Shown one piece after another: positions 3,804 through 24,100 of a stretch of DNA of 64,000 bases. The DNA is from Gammaproteobacteria bacterium. GTDB lineage: Bacteria; Pseudomonadota; Gammaproteobacteria; GCA-001735895. The notes under the pieces are model-generated. The model worked only from the letters and a program-made list of their open reading frames with translations, was not told the DNA's origin and ran no database searches. The DNA lies in NCBI GenBank assembly GCA_022340305.1, contig JAJDOF010000124.1:6396-70395 (forward strand). The letters are read 5' to 3'. Numbering within the stretch: the stretch's first letter is position 1; each line of letters starts with the position of its first letter. The translations under genes were made by a program, and so were the position numbers.

Positions 3804-6689
3804 TTACGCATCTTCTTCGGCATAGGACGCAAGCGGTGGGCAGGAGCAGATCAGGTGCGTATCGCCGTACACATTGTCGACCCGACCCACTGGCGACCAG
3901 TACTTGTAATTGCGCAACGATGCGATTGGATAAGCGGCCTGTTCGCGACTATAACCGTGGCTCCATTCATCAGCACACACCATGTCGACGGTGTGGGGCG
4001 CATGTTTCAGCGGATTGTCAGCCTTGTCCATACGGCCTTCCTCGATTTCGCGAATTTCCCCGCGAATCGCAATCATCGCCTCGCAAAAGCGGTCGAGTTC
4101 TTCCCTGGATTCCGACTCGGTCGGTTCGATCATCAGCGTACCGGGAACCGGGAAGGACATGGTCGGTGCGTGAAAGCCGTAATCGATCAGGCGCTTGGCG
4201 ATATCGTCAACGGTGACGCCGCTGCTGTCCTTGACCACGCGCGTATCGATGATGCACTCGTGCGCCACGAGACCGTTGGGCCCGGTATACAGGATCGGGA
4301 AATGTTCGTTGAGTCGCTTGGCAATATAGTTCGCGTTCAAAATCGCCGTCGCGGTTGCCTTGGGGAGCCCGTGACGTCCGAGCAGTGAAATATAGGCCCA
4401 GCTGATTGGCAGTACGCCGGCGCTGCCGAAGGGTGCCGCAGCGACCTTGTTGATGCCGCCGTTGCGATTCTGGCGAGTCGACGGCAGAAAAGGCTTGAGA
4501 TGCGCCTTGACGCCGATCGGGCCAACGCCTGGACCACCACCGCCGTGGGGAATGGCGAAGGTCTTGTGCAGGTTCAGATGCGAGACATCGCCACCGAACT
4601 TGCCCGGAGCACAAACACCAACCATTGCGTTCATATTGGCGCCATCAATGTAGACCTGGCCGCCATGCTGGTGAACCAGTTCGCAGACTTCGGTGACATC
4701 GTCTTCGAATACGCCGTGCGTGGAGGGGTAGGTAATCATGATGGCGGCGAGATTATCGCTGTGCAGCTCACACTTGGCCTTCAGGTCTACCATATCGATA
4801 TTGCCGGTCCTGGCGGTACCGACAACCACCACTTTCATACCTGCCATCTGTGCCGAGGCCGGGTTGGTGCCATGCGCCGAAGCCGGGATGACACAGATGT
4901 TGCGGTGTCCCTCATCGCGGCTTTGATGGTAGGACTTGATGGCGAGCAAACCCGCGTACTCGCCCTGGGCGCCTGAATTGGGCTGCAACGAAATGGCGTC
5001 GTAGCCGGTGCAGGCGCACAGCATTTGTTCGAGCTCGGTGATCAGTTGCTGATAGCCCTGGGCCTGATCCAGTGGCACGAAGGGATGTATGCGCCCGAAG
5101 CCCGGCCAGGTGACCGGAATCAACTGGGTCGCGGAGTTCAGTTTCATGGTGCAGGAACCGAGCGGGATCATGGTGCGGTCGAGTGCCAGGTCCTTGTCAG
5201 CCAGTTTACGCATGTAGCGCATCAAGTCGGTTTCTGAATGGTGGCTGTTGAATACCGGGTGAGTCAGGAATTCGCTTTCACGCACCAGCGTCGGTGGCAG
5301 GCTGCTGGTGGCCTTTGCGTCCAGCTCGGTGATGGATACTTCGTCGCCGTGGTCGTGGGTAAAGACGTTGAACAGTGTTCTGACATTGGCCTGGGTAGCG
5401 ATTTCGTCGAGCGAGATACCGACGGTATCGTCATCTACCTGGCGCAGGTTGATTTTTTCGGCGCGCGCCGCGGCGAGAATGAACTCGGTGGCGTTGCCGG
5501 TCTTCACGGTGATGGTGTCGAAGAAGTGCCGCGTTTGCACATCAAGACCGAGATCGCGCAGACCTTCGGCGAGTACCACGGTTAGCCGATTGATGCGCTG
5601 TGCAATGCGGCGCAGTTCGCCGGGCCCATGATAAACCGCATACATGCCGGCCATGATGGCAAGCAGTGCCTGCGCGGTGCAGATATTGCTGGTCGCCTTC
5701 TCGCGGCGAATGTGTTGCTCGCGAGTCTGCAGGGCCAGGCGCAATGCCGGTTGTTTGCGGGAATCTTGCGATACACCGATCAAACGGCCTGGCAAGGAGC
5801 GTTTGTAGGCCTCGCGCGTGGCCATGAAGGCCGCATGCGGCCCACCGTAACCGAGCGGTACGCCAAAACGCTGCGAGGTGCCAACGACGATGTCGGCATC
5901 GAATTCACCCGGTGGCTTGAGCAGTGTCAGGCTGAGCAGATCGGTAGCGACGGCCACCAGGGCCTGCTTTTCGTGGATCTTTGCAACCAGCTCGGCATAG
6001 TCCTGAATCTCGCCGGTAGAACAGGGGTACTGTAACAGTACGCCACACAGTTCCGGATTTCCGGGGGCGTCGAAGGGATCGCCGATGACGCATTTGATTC
6101 CCAGGTGCCGGGCACGATTAGTAATTACCTCTATGGTTTGCGGATGACAATTTTCAGCGATGTAGAAGACATCGGACTTGCTCTTCGCGAGGCGATGACA
6201 CATGGCCATGGCCTCGGCTGCGGCGGTTGCCTCGTCGAGCATCGAGGCGTTGGCCATATCCATGCCGGTCAGGTCGCTGATCATGGTCTGGAAATTGAGC
6301 AATGCCTCGAGGCGGCCCTGTGAAATTTCCGGCTGGTAGGGTGTATAGGCCGTATACCAGGCCGGATTGCGCAGCAGGTTGCGCTCGATTACCGTTGGCG
6401 TATGGGTATTGTGGTAACCCAGGCCGATAAATGATTTGAACAATTGATTGCGAGTCGAAATCTGGTAGAGGCGGTTCAATACCTGGCGTTCCGACAGACT
6501 GGCTTTGACCTCGAGTTCCTTGCGCCGCCGAATCGATTCCGGCACGACCTTGTCGAGCAGTTCGTCGATGCTCTGCATGCCCAGTTCAGCGAGCATCGCC
6601 GCTTCATCTTCGTCACCGGGACCGATGTGGCGACGAATGAATCCGTGGAAGATATCGAGATCCTGCAGCTTGAGGTCAAGATTTGGCAT
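3804..6689 (-). CDS. gcvP: Glycine dehydrogenase (decarboxylating), single-chain P protein
   Basis: 961 aa; [38 protein letters not shown] lysine motif. Confidence 0.98.
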
Positions 6690-6872
6690 GGCAATGTCCT
6701 GGGTCGGGGATGATGGTTAGCCCGCTGGCCCAGCAGGATTCTCCAGCTGTGTCGCGTGCCTGTTTTGCGGGATATGTTACCACTATTAATCCTGCGACAA
6801 TATATGCCCTGGCACAGAAGTCCTGGCTATAGCGGTTATTGCCATCAGGGGTGAATAAGCGCCAGGCCCGGG

Positions 6873-7658
6873 TCAGAAATCGCCCAGGCGAGTTACCAGT
6901 TGGTCGCTGATCCATTGCTTGAGTAAGCCGGCCGCCGTCAGCGCCACCTGTTCGGCATCAATCCATTCGAGCAGGCCTTGGCAGATGTCGGCGAAATTCG
7001 CGCCGTTAACCGCTTGCTGCAACGCCCAGGCTTCATGCACCTCGAGCGAACGCCAGTAAGTCTTGAAGTCACGGCGCCACAACAACCAGCGTAACGGGAA
7101 CTCGCTGCGATGCTTGTCAGGCACGGACTCGCCGCTATCCAGTGCGTGCTCGATCTGCGGCACATTCCAGTAGAGATCGAGCCATTGCATCGCCGGTTTG
7201 AACGCGAAAGTCAAGGCTGGCCATGTTTCCGCACCGATCTGTGCCATGTCTTCGAGTTGCACCAGCGTCGGGCTGTCGGCTGCATCGAAGACGATGGTCT
7301 GAAGCCATTCATATTGCGCCAGTTCGTGCACGAATTCGGCATCCCCGGCATGGTTGAATCGTGCCAGGTATTCTGGTAGATGCTGACCGAACCAGCGCAC
7401 CGAGGGCCGCGTGGAAGGGTGATGCAGCAGGTAATCGAGCGTCAGGTTTTCGAAGGATTCACGCCCCAGGTAGTGCTCCAGTGCGGAAAAATCCACCGCA
7501 AGAGAATCGATCAGGCGAATTCGATAGGCGTTGTAATAAGTGCCGAGGCGGTGCTCCGCGAGTGCATTTTCGGTGCTGACAATGTCTTCCTCGATCGCTC
7601 GCGAGCCATCGATAAGGTAGTCCTGGAAGCGTAGTTGCAGATCACGTAAATGCGACAT
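6873..7658 (-). CDS. bufC: DUF2063 (BufC/HvfC-like) partner protein of MNIO enzyme
   Basis: LQLRFQDYL...RLGTYYNAYRIRLIDSLAVDF pattern; directly downstream of DUF692 gene. Confidence 0.85.
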   Translation of the reverse strand: MSHLRDLQLRFQDYLIDGSRAIEEDIVSTENALAEHRLGTYYNAYRIRLIDSLAVDFSALEHYLGRESFENLTLDYLLHHPSTRPSVRWFGQHLPEYLARFNHAGDAEFVHELAQYEWLQTIVFDAADSPTLVQLEDMAQIGAETWPALTFAFKPAMQWLDLYWNVPQIEHALDSGESVPDKHRSEFPLRWLLWRRDFKTYWRSLEVHEAWALQQAVNGANFADICQGLLEWIDAEQVALTAAGLLKQWISDQLVTRLGDF

Positions 7659-7660
7659 GA

Positions 7661-8494
7661 TCAGGACTGGTAGTAGGGTGCGGCGATACGTCGCGCCTGC
7701 TCGAGCTCAGCCAGCACCTGGTCGAGTTCGGGGATATTGCCGTCGCGCTCGATCATCGTCGACACCGGACCGAAACGTTTGGCGGTTTCTGCGTAAAGCT
7801 GCCAGACCGGATCGATCACGTCGTGATCGTGAGTGTCGATGATCAGGTTGCCGTCATTGGTATGTCCGGCGAGGTGATGCTGCCACACCCGCTCTGCGGG
7901 AACGCCATCGAGATAGTCGAGGGGATCGTAATGATGATTGAAGCTGCTGACATAAATATTGTTGACGTCGAGGAGCAGGTAACAATCGGCGCGCTCGGCA
8001 ATGGCGCTGAGAAATTCCCATTCGGGCATCGCATCTTCGCAGTAGGTGATATAGCTCGAGAGATTCTCGATCAGCATTTGCCGGCCGATAAAATCCTGCA
8101 CCCGAGAAATTCGATCAGCGACGTGCACGATCGCCTCATCGGTATAGGGCAGGGGGAGAAGATCGTGCATGTTCTTGTGGTCCACCCCGGTCCAGCACAG
8201 GTGATCGGAAAACCAGCGGGGTTCTATCCGCTGGATTAGAGCCTTGAGTTGGCCGAGGTAGTTGAAATCGAGCTCGTCGGTGCTGCCCAGTGACATGGAG
8301 ACGCCGTGCATTACCATCGGGTAGTCCTGGCGGATGGCGTCCAGGAAGTACAGCGGCTTGCCGCCCTCGATCAGGTAATTTTCGCTGAGAATTTCGAACC
8401 AGTCGATATTCTGCGGTTTGCGCTCGAGGATGTCCTGGTAGTGTTCTGCACGCAATCCCAGGCCAAATCCGAGAAATGGTTTAGCTTGCGTCAT
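7661..8494 (-). CDS. bufB: DUF692 multinuclear non-heme iron-dependent oxidative enzyme (MNIO, BufB/MbnB family)
   Basis: GFGLGLRAEH, WFEILSENY, HGVSMSLG, SDHLCW, IENLSSY, LLDVNNIY, HLAGH, IDTHD, IERD motifs. Confidence 0.95.
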   Translation of the reverse strand: MTQAKPFLGFGLGLRAEHYQDILERKPQNIDWFEILSENYLIEGGKPLYFLDAIRQDYPMVMHGVSMSLGSTDELDFNYLGQLKALIQRIEPRWFSDHLCWTGVDHKNMHDLLPLPYTDEAIVHVADRISRVQDFIGRQMLIENLSSYITYCEDAMPEWEFLSAIAERADCYLLLDVNNIYVSSFNHHYDPLDYLDGVPAERVWQHHLAGHTNDGNLIIDTHDHDVIDPVWQLYAETAKRFGPVSTMIERDGNIPELDQVLAELEQARRIAAPYYQS

Positions 8495-8539
8495 CGGGGC
8501 TCGTCAGCTGTATATCAGGGTGGATTGTAACGATCGGGC

Positions 8540-8573
8540 AAAAAAAATGCACCGACCCGGTCGGTGCATTTTT
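8540..8573 (-). terminator. Intrinsic terminator between precursor and DUF692 genes
   Basis: Perfect 14-bp inverted repeat AAAAATGCACCGAC-ccg-GTCGGTGCATTTTT; 8 U follow the GC core on the minus strand, 20 nt after the precursor stop. Confidence 0.85.
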
Positions 8574-8592
8574 CTAACTTAATGGTTACAAC

Positions 8593-8844
8593 TCAGGCTT
8601 CGAATTTACCACCGGCGCCTTCACACTCACTCTTGGTGCGCTTGACCCAACCTTGACCGGCACAGGAATTCTGACCGGCGCAGCTGGTGGTAGCGGTGGC
8701 GCAGGCGCTGGTGCCTTTGCAGGAATTCACGTTGAAGCATTTGCCGGCTTTTTCAGCCGCGTTAGCACTCATCGGTGCAACGGCGAACATGGCAGCTGCG
8801 GCGGCAGCGAGGGCGATCCCGGTAGTCTTCTTGGCTGTAATCAT
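8593..8844 (-). CDS. bufA: Exported six-Cys RiPP precursor, bufferin BufA2-like
   Basis: 83 aa; Sec signal (predicted ANA|AE cleavage); Cys36/42/48/55/61/74 with NSCKG and NSCAGQG motifs; SD GAGGA; adjacent to DUF692-DUF2063. Confidence 0.88.
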   Translation of the reverse strand: MITAKKTTGIALAAAAAAMFAVAPMSANAAEKAGKCFNVNSCKGTSACATATTSCAGQNSCAGQGWVKRTKSECEGAGGKFEA

Positions 8845-8904
8845 TGGTAATTCCTCAAGTTAATTAAGTGGTTGGCTCGCACGGATTTTTTCCGTTACGC
8901 CAGC

Positions 8905-8932
8905 TTAGAGGCCGCGTTTTTGCAGAAAGTTC
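8905..8932 (-). promoter_or_regulatory. Putative sigmaE/AlgU-type ECF promoter for the precursor gene
   Basis: GAACTT-N17-TCTAA on minus strand. Confidence 0.6.
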
Positions 8933-8998: not shown

Positions 8999-9511
8999 CT
9001 ATTGATAATGTCGAATGAGCAAATTATTGCCGCGTTGTACCAGTTCGAAATGCTTGAGTACGTTCATGCCGAGCAGAACCTCGTCGACAGCCATGCCCTG
9101 GACGATACTGGCTTTGACGTCGTGGAGCTCGATGTCACCCAGTGCGAGATGCTCGAGACGCGTGAGGTACGCGGTGGTAACGCCATTGGCAGTCGATACC
9201 GAGGTAGCCGGACCTGCCTGTAACCCCAGGCTTTGCTGCAGATGGGCTGGAATCGAAGTCATGGTAGCGCCGGTATCGACCAGGAAAGTAACCTTTTGGT
9301 GGTTGATTTCACCGTCAAACACGTAGTGGCCATTGCGGCTTCGCTGCAATACGATTTCCTGGGTGCCTGCCCCCTGCACGGTGGCGATCGACTGATTGGG
9401 GTTGTATTGCTGATCGAGGATGTTGCCGAATACCAACACCAGCAATAAAAAGCCCAATATCCAGCCCGCTGCAGTGAACATCATGCCGAGTTTTTTAGTA
9501 GAATGGGTCAT
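8999..9511 (-). CDS. Clan AA (retropepsin-like) aspartic protease, TIGR02281 type
   Basis: N-terminal [19 protein letters not shown] catalytic motif, LLGMNVL. Confidence 0.93.
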
Positions 9512-22745: not shown

Positions 22746-23402
22746 TTGAGCCACCACCCCTACCTCAAGCTCACAGTGATCGGGTTGTTGATCCTGGTCG
22801 GTGTTAGCCTGGAGCTGTCCGGACTCCTCGATGTGCGTGAGTTGGTCGCCATTGCCCGTGAATACAGCCAGCACTGGTGGTTAATTATCGTATTGATTCT
22901 GTTACAGGCGTTATTGTTCAGTTTTGCCCTGGCGGGCTCGTTGTTTCTGTGGATAGCGGCTCCACTTTACCCGCCGTCGATGACTACTTTTATTCTGGCG
23001 ATCGGGGGTACGCTTGGAGGATTGGGGGCATACCTGTTATCCCGATATCTGAGCCTGGAGTGGCGACAGAAAATCGAAAACACGCACGGTTATCGATTGT
23101 TGCAGTCACAGGATAATTTTTACACGCTGTTTGCGCTACGCGTTTTTCCCGCCTTTCCACACGCGATTATAAATTACAGTGCTGGCTTGCTGGGTGCCAG
23201 GCTGAGTCATTTTATTATCGCGGCGTTGCTGGGTATTAGCATCAAATCTTATCTTTATGCCGGGGTGATCCACAGCGCGAGCAACGAGCTGTCCGTTGAT
23301 TTACTGCTCGACTTCGGCGTCATCGGCCCACTGATCCTGCTGTCGCTGGTGAGTGCGCTGGCCGTGTACTTGAATTATCGCCTGGCTAATCAGCATACCT
23401 GA
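22746..23402 (+). CDS. DedA/VTT (TVP38-like) membrane protein
   Basis: GGTLGGLGAYLLSR, FALRVFPAFPHAIINYSAG. Confidence 0.8.
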   Translation: MSHHPYLKLTVIGLLILVGVSLELSGLLDVRELVAIAREYSQHWWLIIVLILLQALLFSFALAGSLFLWIAAPLYPPSMTTFILAIGGTLGGLGAYLLSRYLSLEWRQKIENTHGYRLLQSQDNFYTLFALRVFPAFPHAIINYSAGLLGARLSHFIIAALLGISIKSYLYAGVIHSASNELSVDLLLDFGVIGPLILLSLVSALAVYLNYRLANQHT

Positions 23403-23431
23403 TACTGAACCGCCCGGGCGCAACAGGCAGG

Positions 23432-24100
23432 TTAATCTAAAATATCGGCGCCAAAAAAGAAAACTGCCAGTGGCACTGGCGCAACCGCCAGGGCGATTGT
23501 TAGCAGGTAAGCGCTCACCGAGTAGAGACGGCTGACTCCAGCGAACAGGGCTATACCTCCACCGCCACCGATCAGGTAATTGCCGGGTATGTTAAGCGCG
23601 ACCGCCAGCGCCAGGTAGCGGTATCGCAGCAGCAGGGGGATGAATCGCTTTGGCGCTCGATCGACCAGCAGGGCAAGTCGTTGCTGCTTGCTCATCGGCT
23701 CGATTTCCCTGAGCAGACGGCTGGTGCGCTCCAGCTTGATGTCCCTGCTGAAATTGGCCAGTACCGACAGTGGCAGCAGGCGCCCAAGTACAAACGCGAT
23801 GCAAAGACCGCTGACAGTACACAGATAAACCAGTAATGCGATAGGCGGGCCGAGCATGGCCATCAGCCCGATTCCGATTTCAGCACCGGGTACGAACGGG
23901 ACAGCCAGCAGGATGGTATAAAGTGTAGCCGAAATCATGATGGCGCGGTTTACAGCGTCTTCATTGCCGGGCCGCACTGTAAAGTTGAGCGTTTCCATGA
24001 AGTGGCGCGCAACCAGGTTGGCAGCAACCAGCACAATGATTAAACCTACCAGTCGTACGATGGCGCCCCAGCGTATGTTGGGTGGCTGGTTAGCGGGCAT
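23432..24100 (-). CDS. Divergent DedA/VTT-like membrane protein
   Basis: LLAVPFVPGAEIG, IAFVLGR, LNIPGNYLIGGGGGI. Confidence 0.6.
   Translation of the reverse strand: MPANQPPNIRWGAIVRLVGLIIVLVAANLVARHFMETLNFTVRPGNEDAVNRAIMISATLYTILLAVPFVPGAEIGIGLMAMLGPPIALLVYLCTVSGLCIAFVLGRLLPLSVLANFSRDIKLERTSRLLREIEPMSKQQRLALLVDRAPKRFIPLLLRYRYLALAVALNIPGNYLIGGGGGIALFAGVSRLYSVSAYLLTIALAVAPVPLAVFFFGADILD

Follow-up and report, generated by a model that had tools for sequence, protein, structure and literature searches.

Bufferins of the Buf2 type form a large, published family, carried by 864 complete genomes, and sigma/NrsF genes have been reported in Buf1 clusters, not in those of Buf2 (PMC12452194). In the founding buf2 operon of Caulobacter vibrioides (CCNA_02999-03001), the genes bufABC stand without a bufD1-like gene, and the product retains its first and sixth cysteines (CysI and CysVI) unmodified and linked by a disulfide, with a loss of 4 Da at each of the four central cysteines, a total shift of -18 Da and an absorbance near 305 nm (PMC11626156). 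In Buf1, DoxX is dispensable for both the modification and the function of the peptide (PMC11626156). Related products of a multinuclear iron oxidase (MNIO) and its partner protein (PME1) carry 5-thiooxazoles and bind copper. Here we analyse a stretch of 64,000 nucleotides, called the window below, from an uncultured marine gammaproteobacterium (contig JAJDOF010000124.1 of assembly GCA_022340305.1), in which three genes, bufA2, bufB and bufC, very probably constitute a canonical Buf2-type bufferin operon for a secreted, copper-binding peptide.

A Buf2 precursor with its MNIO enzyme and partner

The precursor matches the NCBIfam model for BufA2 (NF050166) with 77.7 bits against a cut-off of 60 (E=5.7e-22, residues 10-81), and the enzyme matches that for BufB (NF050167) with 382.7 bits against a cut-off of 310. 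Both scores exceed the curated cut-offs and bear out the original prediction, drawn from the DNA letters alone, of a bufferin-type MNIO cluster for a ribosomally synthesised and post-translationally modified peptide (RiPP) with a BufA2 precursor. A Pfam search with the precursor at E<=0.01 returned no match, and thus no DUF2282 (PF10048), and no EGKCG motif or repeat occurs in its sequence. Residues 1-29 form, as judged by inspection, a Sec-type signal peptide with an MITAKK start whose KK makes up the n-region, an Ala-rich h-region and an ANA-AE cleavage motif, cut after ANA; these features are conserved in the homologues. The predicted core peptide comprises 54 residues, six of them Cys, with an unmodified mass of ~5393 Da. 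The cysteines lie at positions 36, 42, 48, 55, 61 and 74 of the precursor, and all six are invariant in an alignment of 19 homologues; altogether, 199 precursor homologues were found at E<=1e-3. Furthermore, a scan of species-representative genomes yielded 550 relatives of the precursor, the best 80 loci of which were fetched, and 59 of these hold bufA2-bufB-bufC.

BufB belongs to Pfam family PF05114 (MbnB_TglH_ChrH, the MNIO family; E=1.5e-112) and aligns with the DUF692 structure PDB 3BWW (E=3e-49). Its residues H63, D97/H98, E143, D176/N179, H207, D220/H222 and E249 coincide with the motifs HG, DH, EN, DxxN, HxAG, DTH and ERD of MbnB and 3BWW; by analogy with MbnB, these residues are taken to be metal ligands. 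BufC matches Pfam PF09836 (DUF2063) with 64.3 bits (E=1.3e-17). Searches of the PDB with its sequence or profile gave nothing useful, and the fold search alone was informative. Indeed, an AlphaFold2 (AF2) model of BufC built with 29 orthologues is confident (mean predicted local distance difference test score, pLDDT, 89.9), and its best Foldseek match in the PDB is 3DEE, that is NGO1945, a DUF2063 partner protein from Neisseria (E=3.4e-6, template modelling score 0.75), followed by TglI and then by the lasso-peptide RiPP recognition element (RRE) proteins 6JX3_B and TbiB1. Judged from this model, BufC is a type 1 MNIO partner (PME type 1) with an N-terminal DUF2063 domain and a C-terminal RRE-like domain.

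Which genes are present, the families to which they belong, their conserved motifs and structures and their synteny were all read directly from the data. Every testable defining feature of Buf2 is present, and the features of Buf1 (DUF2282, bufD, SigF/NrsF) and of oxazolin clusters are not, so that this cluster is one more member of the Buf2 family. The host assembly comprises 4.35 Mb in 169 contigs and is 86% complete, and absences elsewhere in the genome are to be read as provisional. A genome-wide search revealed one MNIO gene; neither a second MNIO gene nor a second bufA2 was found in these 86% of the genome.

Other arrangements of the precursor gene occur among the fetched loci. Many relatives with a syntenic bufABC have, in addition, one or two bufA2 paralogues of 57-65% identity that stand as orphans, away from any MNIO gene (L034, L043, L046-L049, L051, L052, L057, L063, L068 and L074), and loci of Cocleimonas and Thiotrichaceae have two or three tandem bufA2 copies ahead of bufB (L054:4989-6135, L056:7001-8072, L072:4432-5101 and L078:6705-7712). 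At least one of the tandem copies in L056, and likewise in L078, has a signal sequence resembling a lipobox (LAGC), in line with the published figure of about 16% lipoproteins among Buf2 precursors.

Conserved expression signals of the operon

The region upstream of bufA holds a predicted promoter of the sigma-E type. When the upstream sequences of ~40 related genomes are aligned, TGAACT and CTCTAA stand out as >=80% conserved amid divergent sequence, and GAACTT...TCTAA with a spacer of N16 or N17 occurs in 37 of the 41 aligned regions, the spacer being of 17 nt in the close clade and of 16 nt in the farther one. The leader that follows contains a stem-loop. Leaders were folded one by one, because in the more distant ones the stem is displaced by a column in the MAFFT alignment, and most of the 27 related leaders form a hairpin from a conserved GTA onward. 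Its stems vary yet stay paired (CGG/CCG, TGG/CCA, AATC/GATT, TATGG/CCATA), the mean z score is -1.9 and z is below -1 in 22 of the 27. We infer from this pattern that the hairpin may act as a 5' element stabilising the mRNA. One close relative (L010:1528-1577) keeps the sigma-E-type promoter and the ribosome-binding site and has no leader hairpin, apparently by deletion. A 'GTAAC' in the leader was also considered as a SigF-type site and rejected, as no conserved CGAA follows it and it reads GTAAT in relatives.

A second conserved element, an intrinsic terminator or attenuator, occupies the gap between bufA and bufB. Its minimum free energy is -36.5 kcal/mol (z = -4.5), none of 200 shuffled sequences folds as well, and nearly all related loci have a hairpin and a T-run at the same position, with stem substitutions that preserve pairing. 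A consensus promoter and terminator scan missed this element and returned only chance-level sigma-70 matches, and its negatives are unreliable on their own. The likely effect of the terminator is a precursor transcript in excess of the enzyme transcript, a common arrangement in RiPP clusters. Just behind it, the hexamer TACAAT may, on weak grounds, be the -10 element of a weak separate bufBC promoter; no convincing -35 partner was found for it. The distance of 2 nt between bufB and bufC suggests that translation of bufC is probably coupled to that of bufB. Finally, an Rfam scan of the whole window gave zero matches, which leaves the surroundings of the operon without a glycine riboswitch or any other known RNA.

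Which sigma factor reads the bufA promoter

Promoters of the sigma-E type, such as E. coli rpoE P2 or those read by Pseudomonas AlgU, follow the consensus GGAACTT-N16/17-TCnnA. The host encodes rpoE-rseA-rseB-rseC-degP (contig C123), and the region upstream of rpoE reads GAACTTT-N16-TCTTT, a motif (GAACTTT-N16-TCTyT) also found in 15 of 20 relatives; RpoE itself is present in all 20. Two further extracytoplasmic function (ECF) sigma factors occur in the host genome. One forms a pair with a ChrR-like zinc anti-sigma factor (contig C111:53728-55100) and has its own distinct promoter, TGATCC-N16-CGTATA, ahead of it, which resembles the singlet-oxygen-type ECF11 promoter. The other, the sole remaining candidate for a GAAC motif, has an orthologue in only 3 of the 20 relatives that keep the bufA promoter. 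Since the rpoE promoter is of the same type, RpoE is found in 20/20 relatives and the other ECF factors are either distinct in promoter or rare, the bufA promoter is assigned to RpoE, which we predict to read it with moderate confidence. To our knowledge, bufferin genes are not members of any described sigma-E regulon.

An unlinked doxX gene with the same promoter type

The original prediction also placed the cluster under a regulation other than SigF/NrsF and suggested a missing or remote DoxX. No DoxX gene was found at the locus, either on the open reading frame (ORF) map or by search, and a search of the host genome (86% complete) detected no NrsF, in keeping with the first of these claims. 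The genome holds two DoxX genes, doxX_a and doxX_b, both away from the locus.

The first, doxX_a (contig C107, corresponding to L004:4851-7714), is grouped with the genes of a flavodoxin-like NAD(P)H reductase and a pirin, opposite a divergent LysR regulator gene, and no sigma-E motif precedes it. The group is apparently a module for quinone or oxidative stress, without relation to the bufferin operon.

The second, doxX_b, is preceded by a promoter of the same type as that of bufA. In the host genome, GAACTT-N16/17-TCnnA lies upstream of ORFs at 11 sites, 5 of them intergenic, and doxX_b is one of these. Its promoter, GGTGAACTTTCT...TCCAA, lies 37 nt ahead of the start codon, and 12 bases of its -35 region are identical to those of the bufA promoter. 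Orthologues of doxX_b exist in 15 of 20 relatives, and in all 14 for which upstream sequence is available GAACTT-N16 is retained, with TCAAA after it in most and a close variant in the others, even where the neighbouring gene is not valS. Furthermore, doxX_b is 32-40% identical to the MNIO-adjacent DoxX proteins of loci L066 and L077, and doxX_a is not. These observations suggest, short of proof, that an unlinked, BufD-like doxX_b is co-regulated with the bufABC operon, and they lend some support to the idea of a remote DoxX and of different regulation. In the literature on these clusters we found no description of an RpoE-type promoter or of a co-regulated, unlinked DoxX.

Several points weigh against this regulatory reading. 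Genome-wide, GAACTT-N16/17-TCnnA is not enriched (30 sites observed vs ~43 expected from shuffles), and genome-wide scans for the sigma-E motif recovered no classical sigma-E target besides rpoE; both points leave the extent of the regulon and the choice of sigma factor uncertain. On the HvfX model, doxX_b scores 59 bits, below the cut-off of 80, and a shared promoter type falls short of proving a functional link between doxX_b and the operon.

The strongest alternative builds on these points: the operon would still be Buf2, with GAACTT/TCTAA read by an ECF factor other than RpoE, or with the remote doxX as a mere companion in a stress regulon. Besides the rarity of the strict motif, the presence of two other ECF factors in the genome favours it, and ECF factors are known to control such clusters, dedicated ones driving them elsewhere (SigF in Caulobacter, RpoE7 in S. 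meliloti, RpoE2 in H. influenzae). However, the distinct promoter of the ChrR-linked factor, the scarcity of the third factor among the relatives and the promoter of the same type at rpoE across the clade all argue for RpoE, and we hold this alternative to be rather unlikely, if to be taken seriously. Tentatively, and with slightly less than even confidence, we propose that a clade of uncultured marine and symbiont Gammaproteobacteria has placed both its Buf2 operon and an unlinked, BufD-like doxX under RpoE, the general sigma factor of envelope stress, and not under a dedicated SigF/NrsF pair that responds to copper. If true, bufferin production would be part of the core envelope-stress response, and the shared regulon would be evidence that DoxX acts together with Buf2 bufferins though encoded elsewhere.

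Proposed pathway and the metal

The following pathway relies on homology with Caulobacter Buf2 for the maturation steps and on conserved sequence for the expression steps; its chemistry, metal, sigma factor and terminator read-through are to be taken as proposals. Transcription would start from the sigma-E (RpoE)-type promoter, and the 5' stem-loop would stabilise the message. The terminator after bufA would keep the precursor mRNA above the level of bufBC read-through, or else a weak internal promoter would serve bufBC. BufA2 would be made with its Sec signal peptide and, before export, BufB and BufC would together oxidise C42, C48, C55 and C61 to 5-thiooxazoles, at -4 Da each. After export, the signal peptide would be cut between ANA and AE and the C36-C74 disulfide would form, giving a periplasmic peptide of 54 residues, some 18 Da lighter than the unmodified core, which would sequester copper. 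DoxX would be dispensable here, and it is not normally expected in Buf2 clusters; the unlinked BufD-like doxX, which has the same promoter type, may be co-induced.

Two points speak against this picture of the product. AF2 gave a poor model for the precursor (pLDDT 54.6), in only loose agreement with the published description of strands and helix; for this reason the disulfide and the fold are taken from the literature only. Moreover, copper specificity is extrapolated from Caulobacter, and the literature mentions other metals for some bufferins.

Instead of copper, the peptide might deal with a different soft metal, for instance, or with envelope stress of an oxidative or thiol kind. Control by a predicted sigma-E factor, which answers to envelope stress, in place of a copper-sensing system would fit such a role, as would the literature on related clusters, with induction by gold, HOCl and H2O2 and with MerC fusions, and the genes directly flanking the operon include none for copper homeostasis. 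Copper binding is nevertheless common to every thiooxazole peptide characterised in this class, which makes a non-copper role unlikely in our view and leaves the copper-binding Buf2 peptide as the preferred reading.

Three genes are the standard layout of Buf2 clusters

The original prediction described the cluster as a 'minimal' or 'stripped' variant of a larger bufferin cluster. The 59 bufA2-bufB-bufC loci were examined with flanks of up to 7 kb a side, by comparing every ORF with an iteratively built DoxX profile and cross-checking with Pfam; in this sample, weighted toward relatives of the present precursor, 55 of the 59 have no DoxX in the fetched flanks. A single one (L083) has a DoxX gene directly after bufC and co-oriented with it, and in three others (L050, L066 and L077) a DoxX gene accompanies a second, separate MNIO gene. 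These frequencies agree with the literature on Buf2 clusters. The three-gene layout is thus the norm of the Buf2 family and, as bufA2-bufB-bufC is its standard architecture, the notion of a stripped variant is unsupported. Nor should a bufferin cluster always be expected to contain DoxX and SigF, an idea that these findings correct. As to the loci with a second MNIO gene, in L077 (4697-8970), from an alphaproteobacterial metagenome-assembled genome, a second set of MNIO, DUF2063-like and DoxX genes lies directly upstream of bufA2BC, so that two bufferin-type clusters stand back to back, and in L050 and L066 the second MNIO gene with its DoxX is a few kb off.

The same data bear on whether the operon could have arisen by reduction from a bufABCD cluster of four genes, through loss of DoxX and of its cognate SigF/NrsF, and so be functionally distinct or impaired. 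Such a loss would account for a locus without a DoxX or sigma gene and a genome without NrsF, and DoxX has been described as 'core' for bufferin clusters taken as a whole (PMC12452194). Against it stand the same three genes in the founding operon, the lack of sigma/NrsF genes in Buf2 clusters generally, the DoxX-free majority of the sampled loci, and the conservation of the operon and its regulatory signals across ~40 species, which indicates an intact system under selection; we regard a reduced derivative as very improbable.

An oxazolin or captophorin cluster (HvfABC, with EGKCG-repeat precursors) is refuted at the family level by the model cut-offs and the precursor sequence and has next to no probability left: HvfB is the second-best NCBIfam match of BufB (291.9 bits) and HvfC the sole one of BufC (47.3 bits), but both fall below their cut-offs of 360 and 142, and the precursor lacks EGKCG repeats and exceeds the BufA2 cut-off.

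Locus, neighbouring genes and host

As originally predicted, the ORF map places three co-oriented genes between gcvP and an aspartic protease gene (Table 1), with aroC divergent beyond the protease gene, as synteny also shows. The closest relatives of the host are uncultured marine Gammaproteobacteria, the Olavius algarvensis Gamma3 symbiont among them. The order aroC, protease, bufA, bufB, bufC, gcvP is common to 26 species-level genomes, and several more keep all of it except gcvP.

Table 1. Features of the bufferin locus, in window positions, and the unlinked doxX_b gene
Feature	Position	Strand	Remarks
bufA2, precursor gene	8593-8844	minus	83 aa
bufB, MNIO (DUF692) gene	7661-8494	minus	277 aa
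bufC, DUF2063 gene	6873-7658	minus	261 aa; ATG 2 nt after the bufB stop
gcvP (glycine dehydrogenase)	3804-6689	minus	PF02347, E=6e-196; downstream neighbour of bufC
Membrane-anchored clan-AA aspartic protease gene (TIGR02281)	8999-9511	minus	TIGR02281, 98.4 bits; upstream neighbour of bufA
Predicted sigma-E (RpoE/AlgU, ECF02)-type promoter	8905-8932	minus	GAACTT 8932-8927, N17, TCTAA 8909-8905
5'-leader stem-loop	8878-8899	minus	CGTA-ACGGA / TCCG-TGCG; begins near the predicted transcription start
Ribosome-binding site GAGGA	8852-8856	minus	7 nt ahead of the bufA ATG; TGAGGA in nearly all relatives
Intrinsic terminator/attenuator, bufA-bufB gap	8540-8573	minus	10-bp G+C-rich stem, 3-nt loop, U8 tail
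TACAAT hexamer (possible -10), just after the terminator	8524-8529	minus	(G)ATACAAT in most close relatives; neighbouring intergenic bases vary
doxX_b	contig C23, ~23000-23520 (= L005:5995-6471)	minus	Just after valS; own conserved sigma-E-type promoter

Downstream, gcvP follows bufC in 26 related genomes, an arrangement that the more distant genomes do not share. The two genes are 183 nt apart with no obvious terminator found in between; indeed, no terminator-like structure is evident at 6690-6872, and the adjacency is kept in the 26 relatives. Transcripts begun at the stress promoter might run on into gcvP-sdaA.

Upstream, the aspartic protease gene precedes bufA in ~40 genomes of the clade. 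Inserts of 1.6-4 kb part it from bufA in relative loci L038 and L053, and it is absent from bufABC loci outside the clade. A role as dedicated bufferin protease was considered and rejected as unsupported. Because the bufA promoter sits between the two genes, and because of the inserts and the absence outside the clade, the protease, although syntenic within the clade, probably does not belong to the bufferin system.

Comparison with known systems

Dedicated NCBIfam models exist that would name these genes automatically, and the cluster carries little weight as a discovery; the predicted RpoE control and the possibly co-regulated remote DoxX are its sole mildly new points. They provide a prediction for Buf2 regulation outside Caulobacter, namely a sigma-E-type promoter combined with a precursor-proximal terminator, and offer a candidate unlinked DoxX partner for bufferin systems.

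The closest described system is the buf2 operon of Caulobacter vibrioides (BUF_6/12Cys family). Both consist of three genes without bufD, with a six-Cys precursor carrying a Sec signal, an MNIO enzyme and a DUF2063/RRE partner, and scores exceed the cut-offs of the NCBIfam models for BufA2 and BufB. The core peptide is of 54 residues here and of 61 in Caulobacter Buf2, and the host is an uncultured marine gammaproteobacterium. The two also differ in regulation: in Caulobacter, SigF/NrsF, encoded elsewhere in the genome, drive the operon, whereas here NrsF was not found in the genome and the promoter reads GAACTT-N17-TCTAA. In its elements and their spacing, this promoter resembles the E. coli rpoE P2 and Pseudomonas AlgU-type promoters, and in the rpoE-rseABC-degP genes of the host, the promoter of rpoE is likewise of this type.

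With the Buf1 (DUF2282) bufABCD clusters, the operon shares the enzyme pair and, by homology, the thiooxazole chemistry and a periplasmic, copper-sequestering product. In contrast, Buf1 precursors have four Cys and PF10048, and their clusters usually include DoxX and often sigma and anti-sigma genes, none of which is present here. Oxazolin/HvfABC(X), fontiphorin, gonophorin and bulbicupramide likewise rely on an MNIO-PME1 pair that converts Cys to 5-thiooxazole and on copper binding, features ascribed to the present system by homology. Captophorins of the oxazolin type differ in their EGKCG-repeat precursors and in enzyme families that BufB and BufC match below cut-off; they are likewise stress-induced, often through ECF sigma factors.

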